A program made the translations under genes and the position numbers. A stretch of DNA of 64,000 nucleotides, taken from Botryllus schlosseri. Its lineage: Eukaryota. Position 1 is the first letter of the stretch. Every line of letters begins with the position of its first letter. The notes beneath the pieces were generated by a model. It saw only the letters and a program-made list of their open reading frames with translations. It ran no database searches and was not told the origin of the DNA. Of the stretch, positions 839 to 64,000 are shown in pieces. The stretch is from assembly GCA_051294905.1 (NCBI GenBank), contig CM119372.1, forward strand, positions 30,134,001 through 30,198,000, in the 5' to 3' direction.

Positions 839-1000
839 TTACCACGGGTTCCTGTCAAAGCAGTGCCCATGCACGAATTCAAGCCTCATAGATATGTGAT
901 TGTTCCACGACAGAGGATAAATCCGAATGTATCGACATGACAGTACCGTTGGAAAGCGATTGTAGACTTTCGTCTCCTTGTCAGAATTCCCTGTGTAGAT
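839..1000 (-). CDS. Copy A exon 5 (discoidin C-terminal part, stop)
   Basis: IYTGNSDKETKVYNRFPTVLSCRYIRIYPLSWNNHISMRLEFVHGHCFDRNPW*; AATAAA on minus strand at 807-812. Confidence 0.92.
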   Translation of the reverse strand: MYTGNSDKETKVYNRFPTVLSCRYIRIYPLSWNNHISMRLEFVHGHCFDRNPW

Positions 1001-4000
1001 CTGAGAATAAAAAATAAAATTACCAATAGCATTCATTTCTAGACTAGTGTTTGTCAAATTTGTTAGAATAGTGGAACCATTCCGTATTTATCGAAAAATA
1101 GGCACACTCGAGTAGGCCTACTTGCGCATTGCCATTGTAAATAAGTGTATTTCGGCCTATACAAAAACACAGTTTCATCAATAATGTAATGCGAATCGGG
1201 CTGTTTCGCACGTCACAATTATAATAGTGTATGAATATCTCCCATCAATATTCGATTTTGAATGTGTTTCAACATAAGAGCGAAAAATCCTTGCTGGAAA
1301 AAGTATATCCAATCGGCTACATGTTGGGTACATAAAAGCGAGGATTGAAATCGCAATTACGTACTACAATTTGGAGATCCAAAATAGTTTTCTTCAATTT
1401 TACAGCCAGGTTCGGATGGCGAAACAACTATTTTTAATAACTGAATGAGGACTGGCTGTATTTATGAAGATTGATGTATCAAAAGATATATATAGTTGTT
1501 TGTTGTTTTATTAACGCTTATAATTGGCGCTTGCAACATCGTGGTTATTTGCGCCCACACAGTAAATTTCATAATCGCATAATGGCATGTCTTCATGAAC
1601 TTGAGTCTTTTTTTCGGCTCATTTGCTGCCTCCTTTCACGAGTTCGGCTCTCTCTTCGTCTGGGCTTTTCAATGCGCTGTATTACAGCGGGATCGGCGAT
1701 GAGGAGCCCAGATAAACCTCCGACACATAGAAATATGGCAGAGCCGAGACTCGAACCATCAACCGTCGATGTCGTGACTACAGTGTTTAACCAACTGCGC
1801 CACTCGCTTATATAGTAACTTGCAAACTACGAACTAGTGAGTACCGCCATTTGAGGACTTCGTATATTATATTTCTTTTTCTTTTTTCGTGTCGCACCAG
1901 CGAAATATAGTTTCAGCCATACTATGAATCAATGACGTCCGAGAATAGACATGAATGTAAATTACGTCAGCAGGTTATTTCATGTCGGTGACCAATGATC
2001 TGTGACTTCTCAATCACTTTCAATAACGTTTTTGTTTCTTGAAAATTCAACATTTCCAAGATTTCTATGCTAGTGGATTTCGTGGAATTCTAGCATGTGT
2101 AATTGGGTTTTCGAAGTATTATATTTCCTATGGTTCGGAGCTGAGAAGTCGCCAGTACTACAAGTTCGTAATCGTTAGTAAAATGCAAAATGAATATTGA
2201 ATGGGCCACCCAAATCGCTAACGTAAGCTATATACGACAATAAAACAGTATTCATTGGGACATTGGAAGTTGGAGTGGAAATATCGCGAAGATAGTCAAC
2301 ACGTAAATTGAAAGGGTTGGAGCAAATATTTTAAACAATGACATGACCTATTATTATCACGATGGCCATGCACTGCCCAGGTCAAATATTTGTAGGCAAA
2401 GGTCGCTATTCGCCACCTCACTTCTCTTTAGCCACGCAACAGATTGCGGGAATTCATACCGAATGGAAAAAGACAGTATGTTGATTTAATTTATTTAAAT
2501 ATATAATCATCCCTATATTTCCGTCCGCACATCTGATGTATAGTCGTGACGCAAAACTAAACATTGTTTTGATATGTGTCACTCAACTTATGTTTGAATA
2601 TACTAATAATAATTTGGGGTCGCGACTCGCGACCATGAAGAGCTTGGAAACCCCTGCACTCGATACACGGGAGCGTTTTGTAAGTGTTGCGCGAAGAGTT
2701 TGACAGGTTTTTATTGATTTATTGCATTTTTATCGTATATCAATGTAGTTATTTCGTATTTACAATTTGCTGTGCTGCTGTCCATTACAAATACAAAACC
2801 TAGGAATTACTTCAGCTGTGCAGCAGTTCCAATTTGGTATTATTGCGTCACATGGATCACAACAAAGAAAAAGCAAGCAACACATAACCCGGGGTCGGGG
2901 ACCTTTTTCGTCCGAAAAGCCATATTGCCGCTGTATGTTCCATTTCAACTCTCAAAGAGCTATACATGTCAATCAATTGTTACGTCACAATTGAAAATTC
3001 GGGACGTCATGTTCGCAGGGTTAGGATTAGGAACTCGGTACATGTGATTCGCCGTGTCCGCCATATTTCCCTGTAAAAACTGGTACCAATCATGCTGGTT
3101 GCATTATTTGAGCACGCGAAACTTGATTGACATTTTTCTTTTGCAAGTCACACATTTTAATTACATCGCCTCAGTTAAACGAGATCGTGGAGATAGTGTC
3201 TCACCAGTCGTCAGGATGAGTGAACGAAAGTTGCGAAACCTTCAATGATCATTGGTACATTTTATCGATGTTGATGAATGACTTCAATTAGAGAATTTTT
3301 GCTCCAAAAATCACGCAATTTGCTAATTTATTGTTCGCGTCACGTCTGTGATAGCGTATCATTTGTGATAGCGCAATTCATCGTAAGAATTATCATCGCT
3401 TAGAATTTATAATAAGGGATTTCACTCGAATGTAATAGTCGCACTGATTCCAAAAATATAAATATTGAGCGACTTCTCAATTCTCAAAGTATTCGCGGCA
3501 ACATAACGTTGCACTACACGTCTACATTTTAACGGTGGTACGAAAAAGCTACTTACCAATCAAGAACGTGGATAACTATGGCGCTGTTTGTAATTTGAAT
3601 TTGTGATTATTAACGACACTTCCACGCCAGTTCATTTCTCGCCGTACATCAGGACGACAATGTGCATTTATAAACTGCATTGTCATACAGGCGTCGCCAT
3701 GTCCGCTATTCTCTTTGATCAATAATCATATCGTGCAATCCAAGATTTCGAGTCGGGTAAATCGAATTTGGCAGTGATAATGGTCGCCGGCACGACATCA
3801 ACTTGAATTTGAGGATTTTGACAAGGCGGTCCGAACACCTAACCCTGAATATACGCCACTGTCTTGACCTCTCAAAGGCATGTTTCTACTGCGACGAGAA
3901 TAATTATTTTGGCTGTGATGAAAATTTACTAACAAGTTGCTGCAATATTGATAGATTTAGAAAAAAATTGAAATTTGGCAATGAGCCATATCGTAAGCCC

Positions 4001-7000
4001 AAAAGAGCCATATATGGCTCGGGAGCCATAGGTTCCCGACCACTAACATAAGGTCTAACAGACTATTTCATCAATATAGAAAAGGCAGGATAAATCTTAA
4101 CCTTGTCGAAATGAATGGATAATCCCCCATACCTGAATCGCAATCGAATACGGAGGAGAATTTAGGCAAAGCTTCTGATTTATTTGAAAATTTGAAAACC
4201 CTGTCAAAGGCCGGCCATAAAGTAAATCTTGTTAAACCGTATTGATTCGAAACATCCAGAACAGGCGAATTGTGATTGTCGCCTCCACATGGGAGTGTGC
4301 GCAAGCGTTCTAGGCGTTGATGGCCATTGGCGTGTTATGAGCCTGGACATGATCTCCGAGTTGCTGTGCGTAATGTTTTATCTCGGATAGACAAGCATAA
4401 GCGGAAGAAGCAGTCGTATTCTGGTGCTCTAACAACGACACAACTAATATTTACCAGTACATATGAATAACAATAGGTCATTCAGGAGCTGGGTGGTCCG
4501 TAGTGTAATCAGAGGTGGTCAGTAACGAAGTAGCCTACTTTTACTTTTTTGAAGTACCCAAGTAGTTTTCCTCTACTTCTGGTAAGTACTTACTTCTGGT
4601 ACTTACTTACTTAGCGCTATTTTCATTTTGTCAAGTAGAAGTAGTTTAGTCCACCGATAAGAAAGATAGCCTAAGGAATTTCGGGGCTGTTTTCACGTAG
4701 TACCAACATTTAATTTTCATAAAAGTCATGTAATACCCAGAATTTTCGTTGCGCTTCGCGCACCGTAGATATGGAGAGACAAATATGTCTTAACGAAAGT
4801 ATCGCTGAGTATAATTTAGATACCGGGTTGTGTGGTTCCGTTCACACCGCATTGTCACCAATACTAAGTATTTCATCACAGTAACTATGCCCCCCCCCCC
4901 CCAGAACGTTTGAAACCATCGTTTCGCAATCTAGTAATAACCTATTATACCTAGCAGCCCATGACGTGTCCTAATCTGGATAAGTGGACTTCGACTTTTT
5001 TTAGACGTTAGACCTGTTTTAGCAGACCACCATTGAAACTGTTTGGACAAAAGACATAAAATATATTTTCCGCTTTTTAGAAGTAGCAGGCCTATTTGTA
5101 TTTTTCTTTCAATTGCGAGTATTATACGTCGAGTTCTAATTATGGTTTCAGATCTATTGTCTGGAAAACATACATATTGAAGTATAAAAGCAATTGTAAA
5201 TGCCTTCTATTTTCCGAAAATGCAGCTATACACGATATGGCATTTTTATGATCTGCCATATTTTTAATTAAGGTATACTAATCGCGCAAAGTGTTAAAGC
5301 CGTATCCGACACAACTTCTCCGTATTGCTCTTCGACTGAACTATAATATGGGGGCGGTGTGCCATGCCATGATATTCTCTAAAATCGGGTGCTCGAGTAA
5401 ACAACGAATTAGTATTGCATTTCCATATCAATGCTATCATTAACATCCCATGATGTGGACGACTGCTTATTCTGTCACAAATTGATGCCTCCTGGGATGC
5501 ATCAATATGAATCAAGCTCACTACACCCTCCGTATAGCTCCATTTGCAGCTTTTGACAGTCCATGCGAACGAATTACGATAGTTTTCTCAACTGCTTACT
5601 TACTCGAGTAGATTTAAAGTCAATCAATTCTACTTCTACTTCAAGTAGTTTTAGGTTGCCAATTGAAGAAGTACTTCTATTCGTACTTGAGTAGATTTTT
5701 TCGTCGCTACTTCTACTTCTATTTGAGTAGCTTTTTCGACTACTTTGACCACCTCTGAGTGTAATAAATAACAAATTACTGGTACGCCATCGGAGAAAGT
5801 TAGAAAAACATTGAGCCATACTTATGTCAAGTCACCATTGCACCAACTGAGATATACCTTATCGGAGCCGCCGACTTGAATGGTTGTCAGACTGTCATCA
5901 TTCATACCACACGCCACTTTGTATTGGCGCACCCACTGATTGTACAACGTTGGACGCCCTTGCGTGATCACTCCTGCCACCTTTTTCACCGTTCCGAAGT
6001 CAACTTGTATCCATTCGCCGACTTTGTCTGTTTAAGAAGAGATGCACTTTGCTTACCAGTCTCAAAATCGTAACGAACTGGTCTTATTATTAACCAGCGT
6101 TGTGGGCCAGAGATCGGCAATGAGCATGAATTTTGATAGGAAGAAACCGGATTGTAAGATCTTGGCCGTATTTGGATCAGATTAGTATGTTCAACATTTT
6201 GGAAGTGGATTTGGAATCAGACATGGAATTTAAAATAATTATTAAGTGATCACTATAATATTTGAAAATATTCTTGGAGGTACACATCTTCAACATAACA
6301 ATAGAACCAAACCCTGTTATATTCGGCTAACACTCGTCAGGGGTAGGCATAATAGTCATCGACTAGTAGAGAATTTCCTCAAAGAGCTTTGTATATTAAC
6401 AATGGTGAGCAGAAGGCTTAGGGTTGGTACAAACTAGACTAGATTGCCGCATTTTCATAAAAGTTAATTGCAAGGCACATAAATGACAGAATTATCTTAT
6501 TGGAAATATGCCTATGGCCAGGTATGGCCTTGTAGGCTGTAGTAATTCAAGCGAAACGGTATGGTAGTTGAGCATTTTACAACGTGTTACGAACTCAGCA
6601 ACGGCGGTCGACAATTGGGGTAACGAAGGTATGTTGCCTTGGGCAAGCAATAAGCATGATTTCAAGAAGTGGCTAACTGTTACAATGCAACCTGATGATC
6701 ACTATCATATCCTATGAACTCATACGACTCTGTTAGCTAGATCTCATTTTACGACCGGTTACTGTTTTCTTCTTCATCCACCGTAGAAAATACGGTGTAT
6801 ACTTGTAAGCGTTCGGTGGACAGTTTCCAATATTCCTACGAGGAACGGTAGCTGTCAACCGTGTGAGCATTTCATAACGGCTGATTAAATGTTAAATAGT
6901 GCATTATGGATCAATCATCGCCGTATGCCCTGTTCAGCAAGCTACTACCGAATAAGAAATGGGAAAATTAACCTACTTTGCTTAGAAGACCATGAACCCC

Positions 7001-8279
7001 TGCTTTGCTCCGAAATTTGATTATCCAGGCGTGCTCGGTAATTCTCGTGGTCAATACCCCAAAAGCTTGAAGAGGTTATTGCAGAGTTTGGAATCAGTCC
7101 CGACTTCATCCCCATGTAACACACTGAAATAGTGTTCGTCTAATTCACCCTGACAAACAATGCAAAATCTCACAAAACTCACGTTCAAACGTCCCGATCA
7201 GACTTTGTAAACCTGCAAAAACAGAGTTGGAATTACATATCTCTTATAAATCGTGTATGTGCATCCCTATTTTGATTTATGTGTGAATGTCTCGGAAGTG
7301 GTTGGGTGAAATTGCCATGACAACTCAGCGATGCAGACCTCGTATTCACATCGCCGTTGGTCATTTTCAGTTAGTCAGGAAGATGCATACTATATTTTTA
7401 GAAACCGGCGAAGTTCTCCACACCACGTTCCAATCTACTTCTTCAAACTACATACTTGACTATTTTTCCCACCTGCAACATTTTACCTTTACTTGAATTA
7501 GAAAATAGCTATGGTAGCCTACTGCAACGATCCCTTATCGTCGAGCCATGTAATTTATATCTCGTGCGCTTACCGCGCCATGTATTGCCAATTGATTTGA
7601 CATCCTGTCGTAATTTACTAAAAGTATAGAATGCCACGATTCGACAGAATCGGTGAGACTCATTTGCTACACCTACTTGCATTAACGTCTGAAATAAACT
7701 TAGTATGTCTTGCGTAATATCGGTGGATTCAAGAGGATCTCGTACGCACAGGTCAGAAATTCCAGGCTACGTAGCAATTCAGCTAAACCTAATACCTTGG
7801 TTAGCTCTTTCTACTCCCAGGAACATCACTTCTACTTGTACTCGAATGAAAACTTTTCCATCCAAGTTAGTGTGCTTTTATGAGTATATATGGTATAGTA
7901 TTCCCTGGTCACAAAGAGTTTGTTTATATTGTCCAACTACGTTATCAAACCAAGCTGGTGGTATCTGTATCAGAACGTTGCAGAATTGAAACTGAAAGCG
8001 ATCACAGCCGGAAACACGAGGTCTCACTTATTATTCTTTGATAAATTTTCTGATTTATTTTGGGGTCGGTTTCAATACATCATTACAGCAACAATACAGA
8101 GTTACTCACGGCTTTAGCGTCGGGTTAATTGTTCCGGAACACCGAGAAACGTTTATTAAGTACATACTTTGATCGATCATCATTTGGCACTTTGCCCCGA
8201 CTGCATCATCCACTGGGCACTCGCTTGCTCTTGCACACGCATAGGTCACGATCACAACCAGCAACACTTTCAGATGCAT
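839..8279 (-). CDS. Copy A: secreted single F5/8 type C (discoidin) domain protein, 5 exons, 206 aa (retinoschisin/lactadherin-like)
   Basis: Exons 8279-8168, 7212-7183, 7123-6977, 6027-5858, 1000-839 (112+30+147+170+162 = 621 nt). All introns GT-AG with consistent phase. Protein MHLKVLLVVIVTYACARA.. (signal peptide-like), then LCYMGMKSGLIPNSAITSSS..ARLD..GSWSS..EWIQVDFG..VAGVITQGR..QWVRQYKV..IYTGNSD..RYIRIYPLSWNNHISMRLEFVHGHC, which are canonical FA58C motifs. Confidence 0.9.
1495..1808 (-). mobile_element. tRNA-derived SINE
   Basis: Minus-strand head GAGTGGCGCAGTTGGTTAA (A box)...GGTTCGAGTC (B box); core GTGTCGGAGGTTTATCT; AAC-rich tail. Confidence 0.7.
3770..3862 (-). mobile_element. Degenerate tRNA-like SINE head
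   Basis: AGTGGCGTATATTCAGGGTTAGGTG...AATTCAAGT; eroded A/B boxes. Confidence 0.35.
4510..5757. mobile_element. Non-autonomous hAT-type element (CAGAGGTGGTC termini)
   Basis: TIR CAGAGGTGGTC; TSD AGTGTAAT at 4502-4509 and 5758-5765; AGTAG-rich subterminal repeats. Confidence 0.85.
5858..6027 (-). CDS. Copy A exon 4 (discoidin middle)
   Basis: KVGEWIQVDFGTVKKVAGVITQGRPTLYNQWVRQYKVACGMNDDSLTTIQVGGSDK; AG/GT flanks. Confidence 0.92.
6270..6402 (-). mobile_element. Old solo Penelope pLTR fragment in intron 3 (also ~29185-29335 and ~46030-46190)
   Basis: Similar to 51480-51677, including CCCCTGACGAGTGTTAGCCGAA; same intronic position in all three gene copies. Confidence 0.7.
6977..7123 (-). CDS. 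Copy A exon 3 (discoidin N-terminal part)
   Basis: CYMGMKSGLIPNSAITSSSFWGIDHENYRARLDNQISEQSRGSWSSKQ; AG/GT flanks. Confidence 0.9.
7183..7212 (-). CDS. Copy A exon 2 (30-nt linker exon)
   Basis: ttttgcAG|GTTTACAAAGTCTGATCGGGACGTTTGAAC|GTGAGT; phase 1-1; conserved in B and C. Confidence 0.8.
8168..8279 (-). CDS. Copy A exon 1 (signal peptide + C-X9-C)
   Basis: ATG at 8279; MHLKVLLVVIVTYACARASECPVDDAVGAKCQMMIDQ; donor GTATGT; conserved in copies B and C. Confidence 0.85.
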
Positions 8280-8340
8280 CCTTTATTCGGTTCACCAGCA
8301 AACGAAGTAAAGATATAATTTGGGATCTCCCGGTGCCTCC

Positions 8341-8347: not shown

Positions 8348-9516
8348 CCGTTTCCCGCACTGAAACATACAAAAAAATCGTGTGGTTTCATGTCGTGCGA
8401 TTTGCGCCGACAGAACGTATTGCCTCGCCAATTGTTCAAAGTAAATTTTCTCTGCAGAGGAATGAAAGATTAAATTAAATCTATGTTTGTGAATGCGCAA
8501 TGCAGACTCCTTTGCTTTTTGAGGAAGCAAGCTGATGATTGACAGGATAATGATTAGCTGCTTCCCAACGTCAATGCGGCGCCAACATTTCACAACGCTG
8601 ACCTACTGATATTCCATCATACCGAATAATTGACGGATATTGAGCTCGTGAAACCAGGCGCCTCCGAAAATGATGACTGCTCTCGTGCTCTTACATGACC
8701 TCATTCCGTCATTATGTGAGGGTTCGGGAAATTGTCACTCGCAATTTTCCTGTGACTATTTCGACGACTAAACATAGCCTAAGCCTACATCGGATTGATA
8801 TTTTTGCATAGAATAACTTGTATTCCTGAAGTAAGTGAAAACACAGCTACCATCATATTAAAAGCGGCACACAACATGCGACAAATTTTAGTGTACTTTT
8901 CATCCACACACCCGTTAATTCATATCCCGTGGCACAGACATAATGTTGGGTCAAATAAACTTGTTGTTTTGGGTTGCTTTTAGGTTGATTTGGATACAAC
9001 AGGATTTTATCTTACCTCAAGGACTAATATATAGGCTCACACGTAGCTAGTGTCACAGATTCATTTTATCGAGCATCAGTGGAGGTAGGATGATCAAGTC
9101 AAGTTCTGTAGCTGCTTCGATACCGGATAATTGTATATATCCTGTTTTTTATGCCAAAGTTCCATCATCGATCGTGGTTGTATTCAGACGGAAAACTCGG
9201 ACGACGAATTGTATTACGGCAGTGGTTCCCAACCAAGGGGGAAGTCCCCTCTTAGGGGAAATTTTGAAATTTTTCGGGGGGAATCTGGCTTTAGGGTTGT
9301 ATCGGAAGATACACTCGGTTCACAAGGTTTTTAGATTTTTATTGTAGAGCAGTTAAGTATGAAACTAGTTCTTTACAACTGTACGTTTCTTTGGCGGATT
9401 TTAAGGTATGTGTATGTTTAAATGCCTTCCATAGATATTACAACCCCTGATAACCTGAGGCTCATGAGACGATTTCGTTGGGCCCTTGACAGCCTCTCGA
9501 CCAAATTTCTACTAAG

Positions 9517-10466
9517 CAGTGTTGGGGTGACTCGAGTCATGACTTGACTCGAATCAGAGTCGAGTCAAGTTTTCGTGTGACTTGACTCGAATCGAGTCAC
9601 TTTGCAAAAATTTCTAGACTTGACTTGACTCGGCGCTTCAGAAATGTGGATTGACTCGTGACTGGGAGAAAAACTTACGAGTAAATTTCAAATCAATAAT
9701 AAGTAACGGTGTCGATTAAATCACCATATCTTGCATATATATGGATTGTTCGCGATACGCCAGTATTACTTGTGATCGCAAACCGTCATTCACTGATTGC
9801 ATGTTTCACTGATCTGCCATTGTTACATTACAAATACATTGACCTCGAATGAAATGATCACAGCTTACGTTGTCGTAAGAGTAGTAGATTAATCTAATAG
9901 CAACGTATCTCTATTTATTTGACGGTTCTGTGCTTACACTGCACAGTGCTCACCCTTACCAACTCTATTGTGTGATTCTAATAAAACAAATATAGTTCAC
10001 GCGTTTATTTTCTCATGGATGCGTAGATGGTGAGTGTATTGTAACATGTCAAGTTGTTTCAACTTCTTGAGGCTTCGCATTCCATCCTCTATTTTGGCTG
10101 ATAATAACAGACTGTAGCATGTAGCTATACAGTCACTCACGTGTTTTATTAGCAGTTCTACGTATTCATAAGCGATACAACGCGTTTTGGCATGTGTATT
10201 TATAACTTTATATTAGGTATTTGAATCAAGATATATGGCCTATTAATCTGTCTTTCACACAGTTAGCAAAATGTAATGATTTCGAATGATCACTCAAACT
10301 TCAACAAATCAATTTGACTTGAATTGTGACTTGACTCGTGAATTGACTTGACTTGACTTGACTCGAATCACCTACAAAAACGAGTGACTTGACTTGACTC
10401 GAGTCAAAATGTGCAATGATTCGAGATGACTCATGACTCGAAAGTAGTGACTTGATCCCAACACTG
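9517..10466. mobile_element. hAT-type MITE, GACTCGAGTC/GACTT-repeat family
   Basis: TIR CAGTGTTGGG; TSD CTACTAAG at 9509-9516 and 10467-10474. Confidence 0.88.
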
Positions 10467-11795
10467 CTACTAAGCAGGAAAAAGTCGAGCCGAATTCAGC
10501 GCAAGGCCGCTGGTGAAAATGTTTACCTATTTGAGCCAACATATGATCTAACGTGAAAAGCATACCATATTCATCGATTCAGCTCAAGGCCGTAGCATAG
10601 GCCGGACTTATTGATTTATTTTTCGTCAGCGGCTACCCGACCGGTAAAAACAGGTCAAATTTAGCTGTACTTTTCCAAAGTGTGGTACAATCTTCATTCG
10701 ACACAGTTCGGACATATCTGAATATGTTTGGCCATACATTGCTCAGTCAACAAATGGCTGTGCGCTAAAAAGCGCCTTTTTTAGTCACTGGCAACTTTTT
10801 CATAGGCGGGAATTTTTGCTCAAATATCGGACAAGTGCGACACGAGACGAAGAAGGTTGGGAACCACTGTATTACGGTGATGGTACATTCGTCATGAATT
10901 TCGTCAAAAATTTAGCTTTGAATTAGGGTTACCATATTTTGAGATCCGGGAAGGAGGACACTTTTCACCGGCTGAAAAGTTACCACAGCAGACGCGATTT
11001 TTTATATTTGTAGTGATAATTTCGTTGTCTTGAATAAAAAAAGTCATCTTTCCGATTTGACTCACGAAATACCTGCGCTCACCATATATTATCGTTTGAC
11101 ATCTTATTTATAATTGTCCGCGGAAAAAAAAATGTGGCTGCGAAAATTCGAAAAATATGGTTTTCAACTATAATATTCCGTTCGAAAAAAAGGCCGGGAA
11201 TATGCCAGAATTCTGCCAGAACATCTCACGTCATCTTGGCATTGCGTCGTATAGCACTCTGGGTGCTTTTCCGGCGTTGCGAACTACATACCGGGATCTT
11301 GGGAGTTAAGGGGGTTGATATGGAGTTGACAGTCACGCTTCATTGACTTGAAGTACTAGTTCAAGTTTACCACAGAAAATTACCCAAAACCGGCTTAGTA
11401 AGTTTGCACACGGCTCGATACATGACAAGAGAAAGCAAACCGCGTTACTTCAAGCTGTATAAGTGGGAGTAGGGGCTCGAATGTGTATTGACCTAATTAC
11501 CACGCCCCTACGGAAATGAGTCATATAAAATTTCATATTTCGATTTCAGAGCTGGATATTTAGAAAACTAGCATATCGCGTGTTTGTTTTTGAAAGAGCT
11601 ATCAAAACACCAAAAGTTTTTATCAGATTACTGGTCATCGCATCCCACACCGCTTTTCAATCTGTGTTTAGCTTCATGATTGATCGATATTCATTTTAAT
11701 ACAAGGCGACCAACAGACCATGCATATACCGCGAAGTCTCATACGAATATAAAACCATGATATTGATCAAGCAATGTATAATGCATAAAAGAGTA

Positions 11796-18589: not shown

Positions 18590-19276
18590 TCATGAAAAAT
18601 TCTTATACTCTCCGCGCCATTGCCCAATTATGTATAAGGCACTGTCGTAAATGAAATCCAATATTCCAATGCGTTTGTCCATATTACGTAGGCTTACCAT
18701 ACGTCCTCTTTTAAGAGGATTTGTCCTCTTTTTTGACTTTTTTGAAAGTGTCCTCGGAGGACGCCCTTTTGTCCTCTTTTTTGAGATTTTGTCCTCTTTT
18801 TTAGGATTTAGAGCAGATTTAGAGCAAATTGCGAGTGATATGCCATATATTAGCACAGACGTGAAGCTCCGACGGGTGAAAAACGGTGAATTTAGCTCTG
18901 AGCGAAAAGATGACCTTTTTTTATTTTTTATTTTTTAGTCATCCCCCTAGCAATGTGGGGAGAAAAACGGTATTTTTTTTTTTTTTTTCAGTCATCCACC
19001 TAGCAATGTGGGGAGTAAAACGGTATTTTGAGTTCTGAGCGGAGGAGATGACCTTTTTTTTTTTTTTTTTTTTTTAGTTAACCAGTCACAAAGTGGGAAA
19101 AATTAACCGGTTTTTTAGAATTCTACTCCGGTTTTGAAAGTTGGAAATTTATGAAAAAGTGTCCTCTTATTAGATTTCCAAAATATGGTAAGCCTAATAT
19201 TACGGAAAGGCCATATCGGCTGCAGATCACCAATGGTTTCAGTCATAGCAGTGGCCGTACACGAGTTCAAGCCTCC
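18590..19276 (-). pseudogene. Orphan relic of the last exon and 3' UTR of another discoidin paralog
   Basis: 19274-19227 reads RLELVYGHCYD*NHW* (cf. RLEFVHGHCFDRNPW*). 18590-18688 aligns with the copy B 3' UTR (AATATTCCAATGCG). Split by the MITE at 18689-19196. Confidence 0.75.
18689..19196. mobile_element. hAT-type MITE (TAGGCTTACCATA termini); relative at 47740-48112
   Basis: TSD ATATTACG at 18681-18688 and 19197-19204. Confidence 0.85.
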
Positions 19277-19288
19277 TACACTCTTAAT

Positions 19289-27399: not shown

Positions 27400-28350
27400 T
27401 TTCCACAAGACTTCTGAGTAATTCCAGTTGTTAGCGGATTCGGACTTGGATTTATCCATGATTCTGAAGAATCAACTATGTTACAACGGTATTCTTTGCT
27501 GGAGTGCTGCCTGCAAGAGAAAAATTGACCCACTCCAAAACATTCAACATCGAACTCTCTCTGTATCATTGCCAAGGCCCCAATGAGGCCTGGGTGTGAA
27601 ACTCATAAATCGCTACTCAAACGACTCGGTGTTCTAGACATAGAAGAGATGAGAAAGCGAGAAATCGCCACGTTTATGTATCAGATCCATTGCGGTCAGT
27701 GTCTCACAAATTTTAATGACTACTTCGTCTCATAATCAAATGCTCACAAGCAATGTTCCCTCTAATCTTTGACGTGTCTGCGCACACTCACCAACTCACT
27801 GCGCAGATCCTTGGACGACAGTGCTTAACGATCTAAATAAGGTCATCACTTTGGATTTTCTGTGCGCAACTTCGATTTCTGTGCGCAGAGACCGTGTCAG
27901 CACTGCGCATTTGCGCACGTGCGCAGCTTAGAGGGAACATTGCTCACAAGTACATCACGCGCGCGTCCTCGACGAGCAGCTACCACGTGATCACGATGGA
28001 ATACAAGAAAACGCATCGCTCCCTCAAGTATGCCGGATCTCAAGTGTGGATCAGCAGCTCACCGGCTAACTGACAGTCGCGAAGCATGTCCACTTCAAGT
28101 CAAAATACAAACAACTTCTGCTGAATGAAGACTATAGTTAGTCCTCAAGATTACCAGACCTCGATCTGACATATCAAACTCGCCTATCGACACATGCGTG
28201 ATTCATTTTCATCACTTATCGTTTCATGTTATCCCTCATCTCTTTCCATCCAGTGTACATGCCTCTATTTTGCATCGCCTAGGACCAGATGGGTGTCTGA
28301 TTTGAAGACAAATCCAAGCCGTTTCGACACCATCGTATTTCGTCATTGTA
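27400..28350 (+). mobile_element. 3' fragment of an L2/Crack-like LINE in copy B intron 3
   Basis: Paralog of 44370-45140; absent from copy A. Confidence 0.7.
27751..27942. mobile_element. MITE (CAATGTTCCCTC termini, TGCGCA-rich)
   Basis: TSD CTCACAAG; empty site in copy C at ~44710; second copy at 53591-53783. Confidence 0.88.
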
Positions 28351-32006: not shown

Positions 32007-32392
32007 CCACACAATCGAACCATGCTGGTGGTATCTGTGTTAGAACGTTGCTGAATTGAAGCTGAAAGCGATTAAAGCCGGAAATACGAAGTCGCACTTA
32101 TCTTCCTTTCATAAATTTTCTGATTGATTTCACGAAATTCACTTTACAGCATCAATGCAGAGCTACGCACGTCAGGTTAATTGTTCCGGAACACCGATAA
32201 ACGTTTATTCAGTACATACTCTGGTCGATCATCATTTGGCACTTTGCCCCGATCGCATCATCCACTGGGCACGTGCTGGCTCTTGCACATGCACAAGTCA
32301 CAATGACGACAAGCAACACTTTCAGATTCATCTTTTCCCAGGTTTACAAGTAAAACGAGGTAAAGTATACTTTGGGATCACCCATTGACTAC

Positions 32393-42067: not shown

Positions 42068-42229
42068 TTACCACGGGTTCCTGTCGAAGCAGTGACCATG
42101 CACGAATTCAAGCCTCATGGACATGTGATGGTGCCACGATTGAGGATAAATTCGAATGTATCGAGTGGAAAGTACCGTCGGAAAGCGATTGTAGACTTTC
42201 GTCTCCATGTCAGAATTCCCTGTGTAGAT
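42068..42229 (-). CDS. Copy C exon 5
   Basis: IYTGNSDMETKVYNRFPTVLSTRYIRIYPQSWHHHMSMRLEFVHGHCFDRNPW*. Confidence 0.92.
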   Translation of the reverse strand: MYTGNSDMETKVYNRFPTVLSTRYIRIYPQSWHHHMSMRLEFVHGHCFDRNPW

Positions 42230-45200
42230 CTGAAAATTGAAAATAAAATTAGCAATAACATTCATTGTCTAGATTAGTACTTGTCAAACTTTGCTAGGAT
42301 AGTGGATCCTTCAGTTTTTACCTAAAAATAGGCACATTCGAGTACTTGCACATAGTCATTGAAACTATTCGTATTTCGGCCTATAGCCTACAGAGACAAT
42401 GTTACATCTATAATGTGCTGCGAATCGGATTGATGGATTTCCTCAGGTATTTGTACAAAGCAATCTTGCAACTTTGTTTTGCAAATCCCTATTATAAGGG
42501 TGCATGAATATCTTCAATCAATATTCGATTTTGAATGAGCCATTGTCACATCACGCATTACACGGTCTGTGCTTCAAATTGTTACGTGATACGTTTCCGA
42601 ATCACTAAGTCGTAAAACAAGTCAATCAGTGTCTGTGATTACTATGAGTCAGCATCACGCATAAAGGATGAACGGCATGTCAAAAAAGCCGAAAGCTGAA
42701 TTTCAAAAAAGGTTTGGACCAATAAATATTTGTTTACTGGAGTTAGGGGTAGACATGTCTCATTGATGGTTAGTGGCAAGCAACAAAACAAAGCTGGCTA
42801 CTCTTACCACGTCGCTTACGGAAATGAACACACTTGCGCTCCAAAGCAGTACAAGTGTCGAGTGAGCCATAAAGAAAATAATATCCACCGTGACAACTAG
42901 CAAATTCAAAGTTTTATTTTTCGCAATTTTGGTATCTGGTTCCCGAAATGTCAATAACAAATATTCCTGCCTATTTGTTACCAGTGTACATATACATCCA
43001 CGCGCGGCACGGCTGAATAACTCATGGATAGGTACTATCTAATTTCAGGTAGCATAATTTCGCTACTTCGATTGGATAGAGATATAAATCGTTTCGAAAG
43101 ACCTATAGCACGTTCCTGTAGTCTTGATAGATAGGGGTTTAGGAGCTCATCATTGCCTAAATGCTATCACGGCCAGACTCCCACATGTAGGCGACCGATA
43201 GTAGGTTTACGTCACGGTGCTGACCATTTTTAGTAATCAGCATGCCAAATTTAGAGGTGGCTCACTAGACATTTTTAAATCCTAATTTGGGTCGCAACCA
43301 TGAAAAGCTTGGGGCCATTTCACTCATGTCACAGGGGCGCTTCGTAATTGGTACACGAAGATTTCCGACGATTTTTTCATTCTATTGATTGAATCTTTTA
43401 TTTTATGTCAATGCAGTTATTTCCAGGGATTGTGTGAACTTGAGGTTCACGTTCGCGTGTTGTGTGTGAAACTACGAAGTTTAATGGTTCGTGTTCATAA
43501 ACGAGCCTTGTTAGGTTCAGATCTGAACTTTTTTAAGTATTTTAAATTTTCACGCCATTATAACTTCTTTGCGTGTCTACGTCCGACAAGTCTCTTCTTG
43601 GCGCTGGCAGCATGAAATGAAATTCAGCATTACATGAGCATGCACCTTACCAATTTGCAAAATTATTTGCTCGAGAGTTCGCTCGGAATATCAGCTTTAC
43701 GTTTGTGAATCTTTTGATACTCTCAGGTATAGGAGCTTTACCAGCCATCACAACACAGCAAGACTGAAACACACTACATGTATAGGAATTCGGCGAATTT
43801 TGCTTAGTCAACCAACCTATTACATCAACGACATTGTTATAAAGAATGCATCCAAGTCTAAAAAAGTCGATCATTCGGGATCCATCTTGAATTGACAAAG
43901 TTATTGTATCATAAAAACCAAATCCCTTCGATCGGGGTGTTAGATACCGTCTTGTGAATCTCGCCTCCGCATGGGAGTGTGAGCAAGGGTTCTCGGATTT
44001 GATGACTATTGACTTTTTATGATACTGGACATGATCTCTGATGTTAGTTAGAGAAAAATCGAGCTCATTATGTCAGATCCCCATTCCATCGACTGATATA
44101 TACCTTATCGGAGCCGCCGACTTGAATCATTGCCAGACTGTTTTCTGTCATACCATACGCCACTTTGTATTGGCGCACCCACTGATCGGTAGACGTTGGA
44201 CGCCCTTGCGTGATCACTCCTGCCACCTTTTTCACCGTTCCGAAGTCAACTTGTATCCATTCGCCGACTCTGTCTGTTTAATAGAAAAGATGCACTTGAC
44301 TCACCAACCCCGAAATCATTTTTTCATTAGGAATCAGACATTAAATTTAAAATAAGTATCAATTTCCACGCGACTTCTGAGTATTTCCAGTCATTAGTGG
44401 ATTCGGACTTGGATTTGGCCATGATTCTGATGAATCAAATATATCACAATGCGGTATTCTTTTCTGGGGTTCTGCCAGCAAGAATAAAATCGAGCTACTC
44501 CAAAAATTCAACATCAGACTCTCCGTATCATTGCCAAGGCCCCAAGGAGGCCTGGATATGAAACTTTCAAATGGCTACTCTGCAGAAACGATTTGGAGTT
44601 CTAGACATAGAAGAGATGAGGAAGCGAGATATCGTCACATTTATGTATCAGATCCATTGTGGTCACTATCCAACCAATTTCAACGACTACTTTCTCTCAG
44701 AATCAAATGCTCACAAGTACATCACGCGCGCGTCCTCAACAAACAGCTACCACGTGATCACGATGGAATACAAGAAAACGAATCGCTCTCTCAAGTACGC
44801 CGGAACAGCAGCTCCTCGGCTATCTGACAGTCGCGAAGCAGGTGGAACAGCAGCTCCTCGGCTATATGACAGTCGCGAAGCATGTCCACTTCAAGTCAAA
44901 ATACAGGCAACGTCTGCTGAAGGAAACTAGTTAGTCCTCCTGATTACAGGACCTCGAACTCACATATCAACCTCGCCCATCCGCACATGTGTGATTCATT
45001 TTCATCACTTATCGTTTCATGTTATCCCTGATCTCTTTCCATCCAGTATAATGACTCTTATATACATCGCCTAGGACCAGTAGGGTGTTTGATTTAACGA
45101 CTTAGCCAAGTCGTTTCGACAACATCCTATTTTTCACTGTATCTCAGTCTTGTGATGTTTTGAAATTATGAAAATATTACTGGGCTGACACCGATACTGG

Positions 45201-48200
45201 ATTGTTTATTTATATCTGAATTTTTAAAGAAATTATGTAGGCCTATCTGCTGTGGTTACCTAATCAATCATTGCCATTTCCTGACGGACTCTTCGATCTT
45301 ATTTGAAAAAAAATGCTTTCGTAATAGCACTTTTACCGATATTTCAGGCCGATTATAGATGCGCAGGATCAGGACTTTTGGATTGCAACAGGAACGGAAT
45401 ACGCCATTTTTTGTTGTTGTTCGAATCCGGTTTCGCATTTATTGCGAACAAGATTATGAATTTCGATTACTTGCTTGGTATATCTTTATTGCAGTTTAAT
45501 TGCAATGCGGCATGAACTTTCAATACCTCATATCTTAGCAATTACTATTCAGGTCTTTTTGGATACCGATCAAATAATGTAGATCAGTGGTTCCTAACAT
45601 GGGCGATATCGTCCCCAGTGGGCGATTTCGAGAAACAAGGGGGTGGAAATACCGAACATCTTAGATCGTTCAGTGCGATATATTTAATTAACACGACAAT
45701 TGAAATGCACGCGAAGACGGCTTATTCACATACGACGCAAAATAATGCCAACTCGACTAAAAGTATAGACGCGGAATCTGGTTTTCCAAGCATCTACTCG
45801 AAAAAATGACCATTTCTTAGTCAATTCACAATCGATCAGAGTTAGACATAGATTTATTGTCTATATGTCTTTTTTCGGATCCGTAAATATGGGAATAGGG
45901 AATAAAGTTTGGAGCGAGCTTGATAAGGGGGCGAGGAGTAGAAAAAGGTTGGGAGCCAGTGACTTATATGCTACCGAGTTTGCATAGAATCCCGAAGATG
46001 TGTTATCGCTGTATTATTTGAAAATATTCCCGGAGGTAGCGAACTTCAATATAACAATATAACCAAACCCGAATATATTTTCGGATAATACTTGACAGGG
46101 GTAGACCTGATAACCAGCGACCAATGGAGTTTTGTATATCTAAAATCGTATCATCGAAGACGCCACTAGCAAAAAAAAATATAATAATCGAGGTGAACAG
46201 ATGGCTTAAGCCCGGGGTTCTCAAAGGGTGGGCCATGGCCCACTGGTGGGCCACAGGAGCATTTGAGGTGGGCCACAGAGCTATTTGGAAAATTTAAGAA
46301 TTAATTTAGGTTTAGTTTAGTTATATCTGTTATATTAATCTCTAAAAATATATTCATATTATCTAATTATACGTAGGGTACGTAAAGCTGTTCATCCGAC
46401 TCTGATGAGGCGTAGTGGCACGTATGGAGTCAGCATGTACAAGTTGAAAACGGTAGGGAGAAACGGCAGCTTTTTCCACTGGCTATGACAACCTACGGTT
46501 AACAGCCACTAAAATAATTTCGAGTATATAATAACTGTAAATGCTGAAGTAACAGAGTATTCCGGCAGGGTCATAGGCCGTATGCCGTTGAAAGGGGTGT
46601 TCAATAAACTCGGAATGAATTGTAATTGAGGTAGGCTATAGCTATATACTGTACTTAAGCAAGTCTTATTATTGTAAGATAAAAATAGCCATTATTACAA
46701 ATTATTAGCAACTTCTGATGGAGGTATCTGCACCACCGCAACGAATCGTAATGGACTGAGGATCTAGCGGAGTGCATTAATCTCTGGAGTCGGTTTAAAA
46801 TGTCCGCCCCGGAAATCATCGTACTTAACGTAAGAGTCACATGAATTGATTGTATCATTGGATTGAATATTCTGACATCGCAACTTCCGTTGGTTTGGTG
46901 CAAGACATACAATTAGCATTGTACAGCATGCATATTAAATAAATCTTTCTACACTTCTCTGTAGTACCTGATTGACCAATGAATCTTTTGAGGCTGACCC
47001 AAAATGATTATACTATTACCCACAATAGTGGAACTAAAATCCAAATCACACAGCGGATGCGTGGATTTAATCATTGTGTTTCGCGACGCGAATGGAGCAG
47101 CGGGCGATGATATTATACACAGAGTTTTAGCCTATGATCTACCAGGGCCGGAACTGCTGCACCCAAACCCCAATTGCGGGAGCTCGAAGGGGCCCAAGAT
47201 TATTTCGTTGGTTGTTTGTTGGAGGATATTTATAATACATGAAAATTTTTGTCGCGCTTTGCGCGATTTCATTGGCCGAAAGGTCCAAATATCAACAGTC
47301 AATTAAGAGAAAAATGTGCGTATTTTAGATAAATAGGCCTATCGGAGCGGTCTATTATCACGCATTGAACAGGATTATGAGTCCAAGATTAGTGGTGGGC
47401 CACAGCACATTTTCAAACATGAGAATGGGCCACGGCCTAGAACGGGCTGAGAACCCCTGGCTTAAGCTTAGAAGCGATCACCTTATGTTGTCACAGACTA
47501 GATTGTCACATTTTCATGAAAGTTTGCAGCAAGGCACATAAATGACAGAATGAACTTGAGAAATGGTGCCTAATGCCTTGTGCGCTGTTGTCATTCAAGT
47601 GAAACGGCAGGTATACATGAGCATTTAGCAACGTGTTAGAAGCTCAGCAACGGCTGTTGACATGTAGGGGTAACGAAAGTATGTTTTATCTAGGGTAGGC
47701 AATAAGCCTGGTTTCAAGATGTGGCTAACTGTTACAATTTAGGGTTACCATAAGTCCCCTTTTAAGAGGATTTTCCCTCTTTTTTGACTTTTTGGAAAGT
47801 GTCCTCGGTGGACGCCCAAATGTCCTCTTTTTCAAGATTGTGTCGTCTTTTATGAGAATTTTGGTTAAATATAGGGTGAAATTCGACTGAGATACAGTAA
47901 ATCAGCAGTGAAGTATCGCCCCGGCGGCTATTTCGGGAGCCGAGCCGGAAAGTTGACCTTTTTTTCAGTCAACCTACGGAGAATTGAATAAAAGTGTGAA
48001 TTTCAGGAGCCGAGTCGGAAACATGACTCTCTTTCGGATTTTGCTACAATATTGTAAGTCTAAAAATTTTGAAAAAGTGTGCTTTTCAGATTTCCAATAT
48101 ATGGTAACCCTATGCAAGGTCACCTCATGATCACTATCATACGCTCTGAACTCATATTATTTTGTTATCTAGATCTCATTTTTCGACGACTTACTGTTTT

Positions 48201-49118
48201 ATCCTACAAAAATACCGAACATACGGTGTCCACTACTACGTTCGGTGAACAGTTTCCAATATTGCTATGGTAGCTATCACCTGCGTGATCATTCGATAAC
48301 GGCCTATTAAATTTAAGATTATGCGTTGTGGATTATCATGCGGCTTATGCTATATTTGGCAAGCGACTACCGAATTAGAAACGGTAAAGTTAACCTACTG
48401 TGCTTGGACGACCATGAACCGGTGCTGTGCTCCGAAATTTGATTATCCAGGCGTGCTTGGTAATGCTCGTGGAGAGGACCCCAAAAGCTTGAAGTGGTGA
48501 CTGCAGAGTTTGGAATCAGTCCCGATTTCATCCCAATGTAACACACTGCAATGGTATTCGTCTAATTTAATACGACAAAAAACGCAAACTGTCGTAACTT
48601 ACGTTCGAACGTCCCGATCAAACTTTGTACACCTGTAAAACATCGACATCGATTAATTGATGACTTGAAATTAGCTCGTAACTTTTGCTCCTAGTCACGA
48701 GTCAAGTCGCATTACCGAAACGCCGAGTCATGTCAAGTCACACAAAAAAGGTGACTCGAGTCATCCTAACATTGTCACACAATCAAACCATACTGGTGGT
48801 ATCTGTGTTTGAACATTGCTGAATTGAAACTGAAAGCGATTAAAGCCGGAAATACGAGGTCGCACTTATCTTCCTTTCATAAATTTTCTCATTGCTTTCA
48901 CGAGTGGATTCAAACACAACTTTACAGCGTCAATGCAGGGCTACGCAAGACTTTGAGGTCGGGTTAATTGTTCCGAAGCACCGATAAACGTTTATTTAGT
49001 ACATACTTTGGTCGACCATCATTTGGCACTTTGCCCCGATCGCATCATCCACAGGGCACGAGCTGGCTCTTGCACATGCACAAGTCACAATCACGACAAG
49101 TAACACTTTCATATTCAT
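42068..49118 (-). CDS. Copy C: secreted single F5/8 type C (discoidin) domain protein, 5 exons, 206 aa
   Basis: Exons 49118-49007, 48632-48603, 48545-48399, 44273-44104, 42229-42068; open frame. MNMKVLLVVIVTCACARASSCPVDDAIGAKCQMMVDQSVQSLIGTFELCYIGMKSG...WHHHMSMRLEFVHGHCFDRNPW*. AATAAA on minus strand at 42036-42041. Confidence 0.9.
44104..44273 (-). CDS. Copy C exon 4
   Basis: RVGEWIQVDFGTVKKVAGVITQGRPTSTDQWVRQYKVAYGMTENSLAMIQVGGSDK. Confidence 0.92.
44370..45140 (+). mobile_element. 3' fragment of an L2/Crack-like LINE in copy C intron 3
   Basis: FMYQIHCGHYPTNFNDYF..HKYITR..SLKYAG resembles the ORF2 C-terminus of CR1-group LINEs; terminal hairpin at ~45080-45130. Confidence 0.72.
46212..47459. 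mobile_element. hAT-type element specific to copy C
   Basis: Termini CCGGGGTTCTCA / TGAGAACCCCTG; TSD GCTTAAGC; empty site in copy B at ~29349. Confidence 0.88.
48399..48545 (-). CDS. Copy C exon 3
   Basis: CYIGMKSGLIPNSAVTTSSFWGPLHEHYQARLDNQISEHSTGSWSSKH. Confidence 0.9.
48603..48632 (-). CDS. Copy C exon 2
   Basis: 30 nt, VQSLIGTFE, ttttacAG acceptor and GTAAGT donor. Confidence 0.8.
49007..49118 (-). CDS. Copy C exon 1
   Basis: ATG at 49118, hydrophobic N-terminus, GTATGT donor. Confidence 0.85.
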
Positions 49119-50550: not shown

Positions 50551-50560
50551 GGGACTTTCC
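50551..50560. promoter_or_regulatory. Canonical NF-kB site GGGACTTTCC
   Basis: Exact consensus; the paralogous position in B is GGGAGTTTCC (34282-34291). Confidence 0.45.
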
Positions 50561-60768: not shown

Positions 60769-62699
60769 AACCCCTAGTGGTAAGAACCACTGATTTATAC
60801 AATCATGTAAACACTAAACAACTGACAAAACACATTCAAACATATCAGTTGGCGTTCATTTACCAAGTCAATAGTACATTTGTATCGCGCAGCAATACAT
60901 CGCAACAATGCAGATTTCCAACTTTGATGGTGCTTTCCGGGGATGGTCCGGATTACAGTTCGACTTTCGATTATAGGACTGGCGATAAAATTGACGATTC
61001 CGGTGATGCAAGTCCAGGACAAACGACATCCGGGATAATGTGACATGCATGTATATTCCAAAGGTCAACGGACAGATCAAGAACTCGGGGTATTGTGTAA
61101 GGTGAGGATAACCACTTTGATGACCAACTTATTTGGGTGCCGAAACTGTCTCTGAAGGAAACTGTCTCTGAAGGAAATTTCTTGATGTAACAATATATTA
61201 TATTGGTCTTGTCATATGCAGTTACGTGTTGTTGCAACACGATTAAGTATCTGAGAGAGGAATCCCACCTGCATATTTCGGAAAAACCCCGATGTGGAAG
61301 ATAAAAAACACAAAACTCCGATCCTATAGTTATCACAAGTTACTATGAGGATCGCTGTGAAATAATACAGTGTGAATCATAGATAGTGATAATGATGAAG
61401 CAGAAATCTTAGTTACCGATTGTAATTTCAATTCAAATAGCTCGCACTGCATTTTTTTTACATAAAACCCTACAAAAATGCTGGTCTCGCATCAACGAAT
61501 TGCTACGATACAAACTTTACAACCTGCCCCGGGGCGACTCTTTTAAAAGGAAACTCTCGGATTATCAGACTATAGATTAGACTGATCATATGCAGTTACG
61601 TATCGTTGCAGCACATCAAACTTATCTGACTGCGGATACCATTGTTCGTTGGATTGTCTTTACATTTTCATAAATCTTCAACTGTTATTCACAAACATCA
61701 ACAGTGACAATGAATCTCACTATGACACAGATATACAATCGCCATAAATTTACTTAGTCACTTTAAATTGGTATACATGTTTTAAACGGTTCCGCGTAAC
61801 ACCGCTATATGGCAAGCGAGGTTGAATAATCATCTTGATGATGTGATGGATCGTTAGTTAGGTACATTAGTTACACACATTGAATGCGAAAATTACTCCA
61901 CTTTTCTAGTAGCCTGGTAAACAGCAGTAGCCTAATATGCAATTGCTGTTCATCATTTTGCGATGAATTTCTGGTAATTGACTTACAGCTAAATTAAGAT
62001 CATACTACCCATAAGGAAGTCGAATTGCAAGAAATTCATCAACGTCGTCAATTACTGATACTTCATTATAGAATTTACAGTCATATGTCTACAAATGTAT
62101 ATGATGATTTTACTGTGGAAAACCGTTGCATATACATAATATGTTTGTTTGATTTGATTGATTTGGTCATCGCATTCGATATCACGCGAACGCGTCCTAT
62201 TCACTCCCTAGAATCGTTTTCTATTCGCTTTGAATTAAAATAATTATCTTTTATTGTAAAGTTTATTGTGAACAAGAATCCATTCATGTGGAAAGGTGAG
62301 CATGGGATGTAGCGTAAATCTAATTGCGCACAGATAGAATTATTGATATCCAAGCAAATGCAGAATTTGCCTTGATCAGCTGACCACTAATGCTCCAAAA
62401 ATTGAACATATGACACTATATTTGTGTATGCCTTTCTATATATGTTAGTCCTTGATGCACCCCAAAGCACCAAGTGTATTGTCCTCCACCACTTGTGACT
62501 ACTGACCTGAGTGTGAAATATGCAGTGCTTTACAACCGGTATGCCACGGTACACTAGCGTGCGGATTGGACTGCTCAGGGGTGCCGCGACAAAATGTGGT
62601 AAACAAGGTTGACGTATAACAAGAATTATGTGTAATGCGATACCATTAACCGATGGGAGAATGTCGAAACGACAAAGTACGTCTCTCAATTTTGAATCC

Positions 62700-63005
62700 T
62701 CCTCACTCTAATGCCATGTGTTTGATCTCTATCTTTCTTGTTTTAGGCTTCCTCGCTCTTTTCATTCTCTTTCTTTGAATAGTCCTCAATCGGGTCTTTA
62801 CTCTTTTACCGCTTTTGTACGGACGCTATGAGCACAGCAACGTAGGGAAGAGAACTTCAGATAAACCCCCGACGCAACTTGCTACTACCAAGAATAAACA
62901 ACCGGGGCCTCCACCGTCAATGGTGGTGGAACGCTAACCTGCCCACATATAGCATATATAGCGTTTGGGTACAACGTACCAACGCTACTCGCCACTCAGG
63001 GAACT
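62700..63005 (-). mobile_element. Degenerate SINE sharing the GTCGG(A/G)GGTTTATCT core
   Basis: CAGATAAACCCCCGAC matches ~1709-1724; eroded head GAGTGGCGAGTAGCGTTGG; boundaries approximate. Confidence 0.45.
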
Positions 63006-63020
63006 CGAAGGGCTATAGGG

Positions 63021-63651
63021 CAGTATTGGGAACAAGTCACTACCTCCAAGTCACAAGTCGATTTTTCGAAGTGACTCGAGTCAAGTCAACTCATCATTCA
63101 AGTCAAATTGAATTTTTGAAGCATGAGGGGTGATTAAAAGTCATACATTTTGCTAGCTACTTGAACAAATTGATGATGCAACACTGAATACACTACCCAC
63201 CTACAACTCCGTGAGATACAGTTTAAGCATGATCCTGTTGCTAACTAATATGAAGGCATAAACTACGACTCGCTCGATTGAAATCAAAGGATGATTGTCA
63301 AAGCTGAGCCCTGCGCAATGTCAGCACTGATCAGTCTAAGTAACAGAGATACATTGATATAAGATCAATATCCCACTTAGTAGTATAGTAGTACTATAGT
63401 ACGACAACATAAGCTGTAAGCTATGATCATTTCCGGTCATTTTATTTGTGACGTAAATATGGACAGTATCGGGAACAATCCGAACTTACACAAGCCGATT
63501 ATACTTGATGACTTAAAATTGATTAGGAAATTCTGCTCCGAGTCACGACTCAATCGACATTTCTGAAACGCCGAGTCAAGTCAAGTCATTTTTGCTACGT
63601 GACCCGAATCAAGTCACAAAGAAAATGTTGACTCGAGTTATCCCAACATTG
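63021..63651. mobile_element. GACTCGAGTC-family MITE
   Basis: Termini CAGTATTGGG / CCCAACATTG; TSD CTATAGGG. Confidence 0.85.
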
Positions 63652-64000
63652 CTATAGGGTCCGGCAAACCATTTTCCCATTGATCAGGTTCCGCGGGGTC
63701 GAAAGGTCGAGAACGACTGAAATAAAGCATTTATGGCATAAAAGTACATTGGAATTTGTCACGTGTTATACGTCTCGCTTTTATCACTATGACTTCGACA
63801 TTTCGATCCTTAATGATGGTTAATTATAGTCTTAACATACTTCGAAAACGTCCGTTGAGTGTTATGAAAATAACAAAGCCTAGTCGCTAAGATTTCCACA
63901 TTATTATCAATAGCGAAAATTTCCAGATCCCTGGCATATCGACAGAAATGACGTCATGTAACATTAGTCATCTTTTCGGGTACCTTTTACTTTACTTGAT

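Follow-up and report, generated by a model that had tools for sequence, protein, structure and literature searches.

A 64,000-nucleotide stretch of the Botryllus schlosseri genome (GenBank assembly GCA_051294905.1, contig CM119372.1, positions 30,134,001 to 30,198,000; hereafter the window, with positions counted from its first letter) contains three tandem genes, A, B and C, for small secreted proteins with a single discoidin domain (F5/8 C or FA58C; PF00754), which constitute a collagen-less variant of a known, barely studied tunicate family. Self-comparison of the window revealed a unit repeated three times in direct orientation, at intervals of about 24 and 17 kb, as well as a partial copy, D, in inverted orientation at the right end. 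Gene models drawn from canonical GT/AG boundaries place all three genes on the minus strand, each with five exons of the same sizes (112, 30, 147, 170 and 162 nt), intron phases 1, 1, 1 and 0, a second intron of 57-59 nt and a coding sequence of 621 nt, equivalent to 206 codons (Table 1). The reading frame is open in A and C and interrupted in B by a TGA at codon 69, in agreement with an earlier sequence-only reading of this DNA, which had claimed two intact genes and one nonsense-bearing copy. Nucleotide identities amount to 88% (A-B), 89% (A-C) and 93% (B-C).

Gene products and transcripts

The plan proposed earlier, namely a signal peptide followed by C-X9-C and one FA58C domain, was recovered in all three copies. 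PF00754 matches exons 4 and 5 in each of them, with five of the six matches above the curated cut-off and B exon 5 below it (23.8 vs 28.2 bits), and exon 3 is covered by alignments to PDB structures of factor V and lactadherin C domains. The signal peptide, read by eye, consists of a basic n-region, a 10-residue h-region and A-X-A at positions 16-18. C21-X9-C31 and the domain cysteines C49 and C200 are found in A, B and C; mature A has cysteines at positions 21, 31, 49, 136, 175 and 200, of which the pair 136/175 is retained in A, has lost one member in B and both in C. In alignments, the F-W-G of spike 1 (F68-W69-G) falls opposite the F-W-G of factor V C1, where this spike has a short form, and opposite W27-G in C2, and the spike tips W26/W27 and L79 of factor V C2 are, according to passages of PMC11098723, inserted into phosphatidylserine membranes. 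Spike 3 reads L124-Y125 in A and S-T-D in B and C. EGF repeats, RGD and a second C domain are absent from the A, B and C translations, and no Gly-X-Y run of four or more was found in any frame of the window, nor was a hidden collagen exon.

Besides its TGA, gene B carries R179P in the RYIRIYP core strand and an altered first polyadenylation signal (AATAAA to TATAAA), and is probably a young pseudogene or a null allele. The reading of the TGA as selenocysteine was dropped: one transition replaces a conserved Trp, and a selenocysteine insertion sequence was not searched for. Different repeat insertions precede the exon-2 acceptor of B (at 30182, 34 nt before it, sharing an end with the hAT-like element of Table 1) and of C (at ~48642, ~10 nt before it), and could affect splicing of the micro-exon.

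Four of the 24 listed sequencing runs were aligned to gene C at 85% likeness, among which X14 is RNA (about 6% of it read) and X1 is DNA. The predicted junctions are covered by spliced reads in X14, namely 549 over intron 4, 335 over intron 3 and 85 in which exons 1 and 3 flank the letters of the micro-exon, and none of these three joints occurs in X1. At diagnostic positions, the X14 reads are of A type in 769 of 769 cases (48409) and 840 of 844 cases (44128), and their loose ends correspond to the exon 2, exon 3 and 5' untranslated region (UTR) of A. The splice junctions seen belong to A-type RNA and are not attributable to C transcripts; codon 69 of B falls outside the displayed rows of the read table. 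Letters absent from A, B and C, diagnostic at positions 44227 and 44260 within gene C, are carried by about 5% of the X14 reads (60 of 1276 at 44227) and by all ten X18 reads, and recur in a contig of X5, which proved spliced on alignment, and in part of the X1 DNA. A fourth expressed type thus exists beyond A, B and C, from outside the window, and is perhaps copy D. The X5 depth sums, taken at two positions, suggest three spliced types, one of them B-like.

It could be argued that only A matters, B and C being drifting duplicates or two haplotypes falsely assembled in tandem. About 95% of the X14 reads are of A type, with at most 4 of 844 fitting B or C at 44128, B has its stop and lies close to C in sequence, and the contig depth of X1 cannot tell paralogues from alleles. 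This account is nevertheless highly improbable, since the B-C ratio of nonsynonymous to synonymous substitution rates (dN/dS), 0.22 (p=6e-6; dS 0.17), indicates selection since the two copies split, B and C carry different insertions and have a relic between them, and the X5 depth sums at two positions suggest a spliced B-like contig. The other pairwise dN/dS values are likewise below 1 (A-B 0.35, A-C 0.42); the copies are under purifying selection, as B was until recently. Within the domain the A-C value, 0.73, is not different from 1.

A collagen-bearing tunicate family and its collagen-less members

The proteins nearest to the window genes are 'lactadherin-like' entries of Styela clava, Clavelina lepadiformis and Ciona (e.g. 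XP_039261982 and XP_039256811). The window domain is 44-52% identical to that of the Styela members, a displaced C-terminal G-x-C is common to both, and a Cys pair at spacing 39, like C136/C175 of A, occurs in 6 of 13 listed relatives. Of 13 candidates, an exon-4 search recovered one, Styela P0001, and no protein of the source organism; multi-domain proteins crowded the results of a profile search over 1.84 billion representatives, and single full-length family members made up 8 of the 150 matches listed, three of them new. The ESM Atlas cluster containing the family comprises 59 chordate proteins of ~257 aa, and a metagenome scan gave two distant loci in 234 stretches, which were left out of the analysis.

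Eighteen of the 20 non-window tunicate members combine a signal peptide, a Cys segment, 7-10 Gly-X-Y triplets, a helical neck and one F5/8 C domain; the helix at 75-95 of P0005 is the sole use made of its AlphaFold model, which is poor (pLDDT 58). The window genes share the signal peptide, the N-terminal Cys/helix segment and the single F5/8 C domain, but lack both the collagen stalk and the longer neck and carry C-X9-C. Their N-terminal segment aligns ambiguously, either to the neck or to the pre-collagen Cys segment, and exons 1, 2 and 3 are joined directly in the reads, leaving no collagen exon between them. In nine of the ten proteins scanned, the collagen of the relatives stays below the Pfam cut-off of 27.2 bits, at 16-20 bits, and for this reason their automatic 'lactadherin-like' names are misleading. 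From MFG-E8/EDIL3 and the factor V/VIII C domains, with which the fold and the hydrophobic spike 1 are shared, the window genes are set apart: unlike MFG-E8/EDIL3 they have no EGF, no RGD and one C domain instead of two, and fall outside the MFGE8/EDIL3 clade.

The tree was constructed from 42 domain rows hand-picked from the matches, excluding metagenome rows and multi-domain rows without a name. In it, A, B and C make up a clade (support 99/95) nested within a Styela-plus-window group (96/90) and a tunicate clade (100/99), apart from the MFGE8/EDIL3, CPXM, echinoderm, coral and amphioxus rows. Sister to them is Styela P0197, a 209-aa protein without collagen (90/89, unstarred, on a long branch), which together with P0019 represents the collagen-less Styela members; a common origin of all forms without collagen is neither proved nor rejected (approximately unbiased test, p=0.125). 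Because of this nesting and the lack of any Gly-X-Y run in the window, it is most parsimonious to suppose that the window genes lost their collagen from a collagen-bearing ancestor. No one-to-one orthologue was found among the sampled proteins of the tree, and the lineage-specific family envisaged from the sequence alone holds insofar as the window genes form a clade of their own; the family as a whole extends across tunicates, is not new and has collagen in most members. Tunicate relatives also occur as tandem expansions on shared contigs.

In comparison with collectins, ficolins and C1q, the collagen-bearing tunicate relatives have a discoidin head, not a C-type lectin or fibrinogen one. A Lys motif (PGKxG) resembling the MASP-binding site can be recognized by sequence in 14 of the 18 collagen-bearing relatives, with Xaa mostly Arg and not aliphatic, and four Clavelina members have Arg in place of the essential Lys. 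The word GRPGKRG is also a heparin-binding site in ColQ, and the motif is therefore a lead only. The window genes, having no collagen, have no such motif. No description of this collagen-neck-discoidin plan was found in open-access literature listings, supplements not included, so that an earlier description is possible, and look-ups in the main texts of PMC7540406 and PMC12212465 were blank.

Two further observations concern similar architectures. Four amphioxus proteins (Branchiostoma P0218, P0220, P0221 and P0223) display a second, separate collagen-discoidin plan with an apparent N-terminal membrane anchor, a coiled coil, an RYRR site, 11-12 Gly-X-Y and F5/8 C, in which the PGK motif is absent, and P0023, from a JGI contig, combines signal peptide, collagen, neck and F5/8 C on a long branch outside the tunicate clade.

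Turnover of the copies and features of the window

Recent tandem duplication accompanied by decay, that is, birth-and-death evolution, is supported by two relics, the nonsense copy B, the further expressed types and the lineage-specific clade. Relic scores were judged against 30 shuffled windows, whose best score was 33.7 bits, and both relics exceed it (Table 1). Relic 1 is the 3' relic of the sequence-only reading, which had also announced rapid turnover and the upstream region of a further inverted copy; all three claims were borne out, and relic 2, an older copy, had been overlooked. A third candidate at 56815-56859 was rejected (E 0.86). Copy D is represented in the window by its upstream part, not by a gene, and its coding part, should there be one, would start with an ATG ~400-430 nt beyond the window end, near 64400-64430 on the plus strand.

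Table 1. Coordinates of the discoidin genes, relics and upstream features in the window.
Feature	Position	Strand	Evidence or remark
Gene A, whole	839-8279	-	five-exon splice model, open
Gene A exon 1: signal peptide and C21-X9-C31	8168..8279	-	splice model; X14 reads with the 5'UTR and exon sequence of A
Gene A exon 2: 30-nt micro-exon, helix/neck	7183..7212	-	between exons 1 and 3 in 82-85 X14 reads
Gene A exon 3: F5/8 C domain start, spikes 1 and 2 (F68-W69)	6977..7123	-	splice model and PDB alignment
Gene A exon 4: F5/8 C domain, spike 3 (L124-Y125), C136	5858..6027	-	PF00754 E 1.4e-10
Gene A exon 5: domain end, C175, C200, stop	839..1000	-	PF00754 E 1.1e-7
Gene B	25063..32331	-	exons 32220-32331, 30119-30148, 29914-30060, 27141-27310, 25063-25224
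Gene B premature TGA, codon 69 (TGG, Trp, in A and C)	29996..29998	-	copy alignment
Gene C	42068..49118	-	exons 49007-49118, 48603-48632, 48399-48545, 44104-44273, 42068-42229; open frame
Relic 1: exon 5 tail and 3'UTR start, 79% identical	19198..19278	-	68.9 bits
Relic 2: decayed middle of exon 5, 73% identical, frameshifted	38553..38633	-	45.5 bits
Copy D: inverted B/C upstream region	60864..64000	+	76-82% identity to B 32904-35026 and C 49712-52059
kB site, A-specific, between TATA box and ATG	8322..8331		motif scan
hAT-like non-autonomous element, 940 nt upstream of A	9220..10869		15-bp inverted ends, 8-bp target duplication
Upstream module: kB half-site AATTTCC and TGACG/ACGTCA half-CREs	8690..8760	-	in all four copies
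kB site upstream of B	34282..34291	+	homologous to C 50551-50560, degenerate in D
kB site upstream of C	50551..50560	+	same ancestral site as B

Several other features were noted in the window. Between 38658-40950, downstream of C, and 55217-58896 there are several homologous blocks, 70-80% identical but not collinear, which are either dispersed repeats or the remains of another unit. A frameshifted long interspersed nuclear element (LINE) remnant at 22960-24600 (plus strand) has a reverse-transcriptase-like tail, recognized by eye, an RNase H match (E 2.9e-8) and a weak zf-RVT match, and a tandem array at 11790-13030 consists of approximately four units of 300-315 nt.

A candidate recognition function and its alternatives

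The window genes may encode an oligomeric secreted agglutinin or opsonin that binds membranes or glycans through hydrophobic spikes, a proposal whose chances of being right we put at about even, and an immune role for the cluster is plausible. The product would be a secreted protein of ~188 residues, grouped with those members of a collectin-like discoidin family of tunicates that have no collagen. Its N-terminal Cys pair and short helix could hold subunits together and confer multivalence, and the discoidin heads might attach to anionic membranes, such as those of dying cells or microbes, or to glycans on surfaces via the spike tips F68-W69 and L124-Y125. Gene A, with L124-Y125, would be the best binder of membranes or hydrophobic glycan faces, and B and C, with S-T-D, would differ. 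Lacking the EGF/RGD and the collagen by which integrins or MASP could be recruited, the protein would act by multivalent cross-linking, as an agglutinin, opsonin or wound-plug protein, and not by signalling, with copies probably diverging in spikes and promoters. The Sc-lactadherin of Styela is called 'an agglutinating glycoprotein' in the title of a 2019 paper by Guo et al. (PMID 31140104). Sections of the Botryllus schlosseri allorejection library report describe five FA58C expressed sequence tags (ESTs; GenBank FF339598-FF339602), two of which were up in RT-PCR (PMC2527998), 'lactadherin' is listed without detail in portions of a Botryllus proteome report (PMC12491926), and ascidians possess MBL, ficolins, MASPs and C3, as stated in parts of PMC5465252.

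Several points weigh against this reading. The Botryllus ESTs and Sc-lactadherin are not tied to the window branch and lend circumstantial support, and the ligand and oligomer of the window proteins are predicted from sequence features. With a pI of 8.2, mature A is mildly basic at most (B 6.1, C 7.7), and the hydrophobic moment of the helix is not above that of shuffles (p=0.12-0.15). Read depth at exon sites is 844-955 in X14 and 5-10 in X18 for a similar number of letters read, a ~100-fold difference that speaks for the proposal but may reflect tissue, stage or genotype. With spikes delimited from conserved anchors, A-C replacements are enriched in them (9 of 26 spike positions against 17 of 126 others, p=0.014), as the earlier claim of spike-loop divergence implied, but the enrichment disappears when the count is confined to columns that are variable in the family (9 of 23 against 10 of 37; p=0.24), and in a comparison of three sequences only the proportions of nonsynonymous and synonymous differences in the spikes (pN/pS 0.211/0.061) do not differ significantly (p=0.16). 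For all ligand-end loops, in the same three sequences, pN is 0.194 vs a pS of 0.199, and the opposite-end loop is nearly as variable as the spikes (p=0.06). Spike divergence therefore does not clearly go beyond relaxed constraint. Finally, conservation among the copies is lower in upstream DNA, with 425 of 737 columns, than in intron 3, with 501 of 688, and shared promoter blocks are for that reason no proof of function.

The spikes also bear on a role in reproductive or developmental recognition (gamete coat, larval settlement, bud resorption) in place of an antimicrobial one. Two indel patterns at codon 124 occur in X14 at ~1:1 (351 vs 334 reads) and may correspond to Leu and Phe forms of spike 3; such spike variation, and an expression specific to copy and run, would suit a protein of this kind, and vertebrate lactadherin has a role in sperm-egg binding. 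Positive selection was not detected, and this alternative is very unlikely.

The 'immune-type promoters', described earlier as rich in kB and CRE (cAMP response element) sites, stood in part and are suggestive. Twelve motif patterns were tried in four window sizes, uncorrected. Of the six window matches to the kB consensus GGGRNNYYCC, five are located upstream of the three ATGs at a distance of at most 2 kb (0.56 expected; a number reached in none of 100 shuffles), but they amount to three independent loci, since two overlap and two are one ancestral B/C site. Full CREs are not enriched upstream (2 of 9, p=0.20), and neither are AP-1, ISRE, STAT and C/EBP motifs; TGACG half-sites are enriched (28 of 131 within 2 kb), with the copies being homologous and the word common in local repeats. 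A further, looser kB match upstream of C was noted at 49775-49784. The A-specific site at 9239-9249 sits in the end of the hAT-like element, and A would thus appear to have gained two kB sites, one of them through transposon insertion. The upstream module occurs once in A, twice in B (~32780-33000) and C (~49600-49810) and once in D (~63900-63960).

Two side observations concern the same upstream DNA. Three-way likeness of the copies is 73-78% in introns vs 58% upstream, a contrast that could stem from gene conversion in the gene body or from promoter remodelling. A perfect inverted repeat upstream of C (50833-51647; 286 nt with a 243-nt spacer) holds two of the nine full CREs and overlaps a weak GIY-YIG fragment (51002-51373, minus strand; E 0.026), the whole being a Penelope-like insertion.

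If the kB matches are incidental, the window genes could encode a constitutive structural or adhesive secreted protein of the tunic, mucus net, glue or a cell-cell scaffold, like retinoschisin (RS1) or echinoderm nectin. The plan of RS1, as given in passages of PMC4728063, is the same, with a signal peptide, a short Cys segment, one discoidin domain and a short tail, and its terminal disulfide C63-C219 is matched by C49-C200 of the window proteins. The abundance of transcripts in a single run (X14), the transposon-borne origin of one kB site and promoter blocks that are not specially conserved agree with such a role, as does a milk fat globule membrane (MFGM) marker in zone 7 epithelium, mentioned in parts of the Styela endostyle atlas, which cites Sc-lactadherin (PMC10980280). 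With respect to the RS1 features covered in PMC4728063, however, the window proteins have no Cys four residues before the domain, none in the tail and no second RS1-type loop disulfide; equivalents of the ring-forming C59/C223 are absent, and because of these missing pre-domain and tail cysteines the RS1 octamer bond is impossible in them. Rapid gene turnover and collectin-like relatives are also better suited to recognition, and a structural role is unlikely.

A broader and unlikely extension of the agglutinin/opsonin reading is that tunicates have unrecognised defence collagens, whose discoidin head would couple lipid or glycan recognition to MASP/C3 via PGKxGP; the window copies would then be MASP-uncoupled inducible opsonins or competitors, and possibly the FA58C transcripts of allorejection. 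Were the genes merely structural, they would represent an ordinary lineage-specific discoidin expansion. The window genes provide a natural comparison in the presence or absence of a stalk, the hydrophobic or polar nature of spike 3, and a kB site apparently gained by transposon. The automatically mislabelled collagen-neck-discoidin family (at least 14 members in Styela, five in Clavelina and one in Ciona) would add a head type to the defence-collagen plan, and these collectin-like relatives are a lead more worth following than the window genes themselves.

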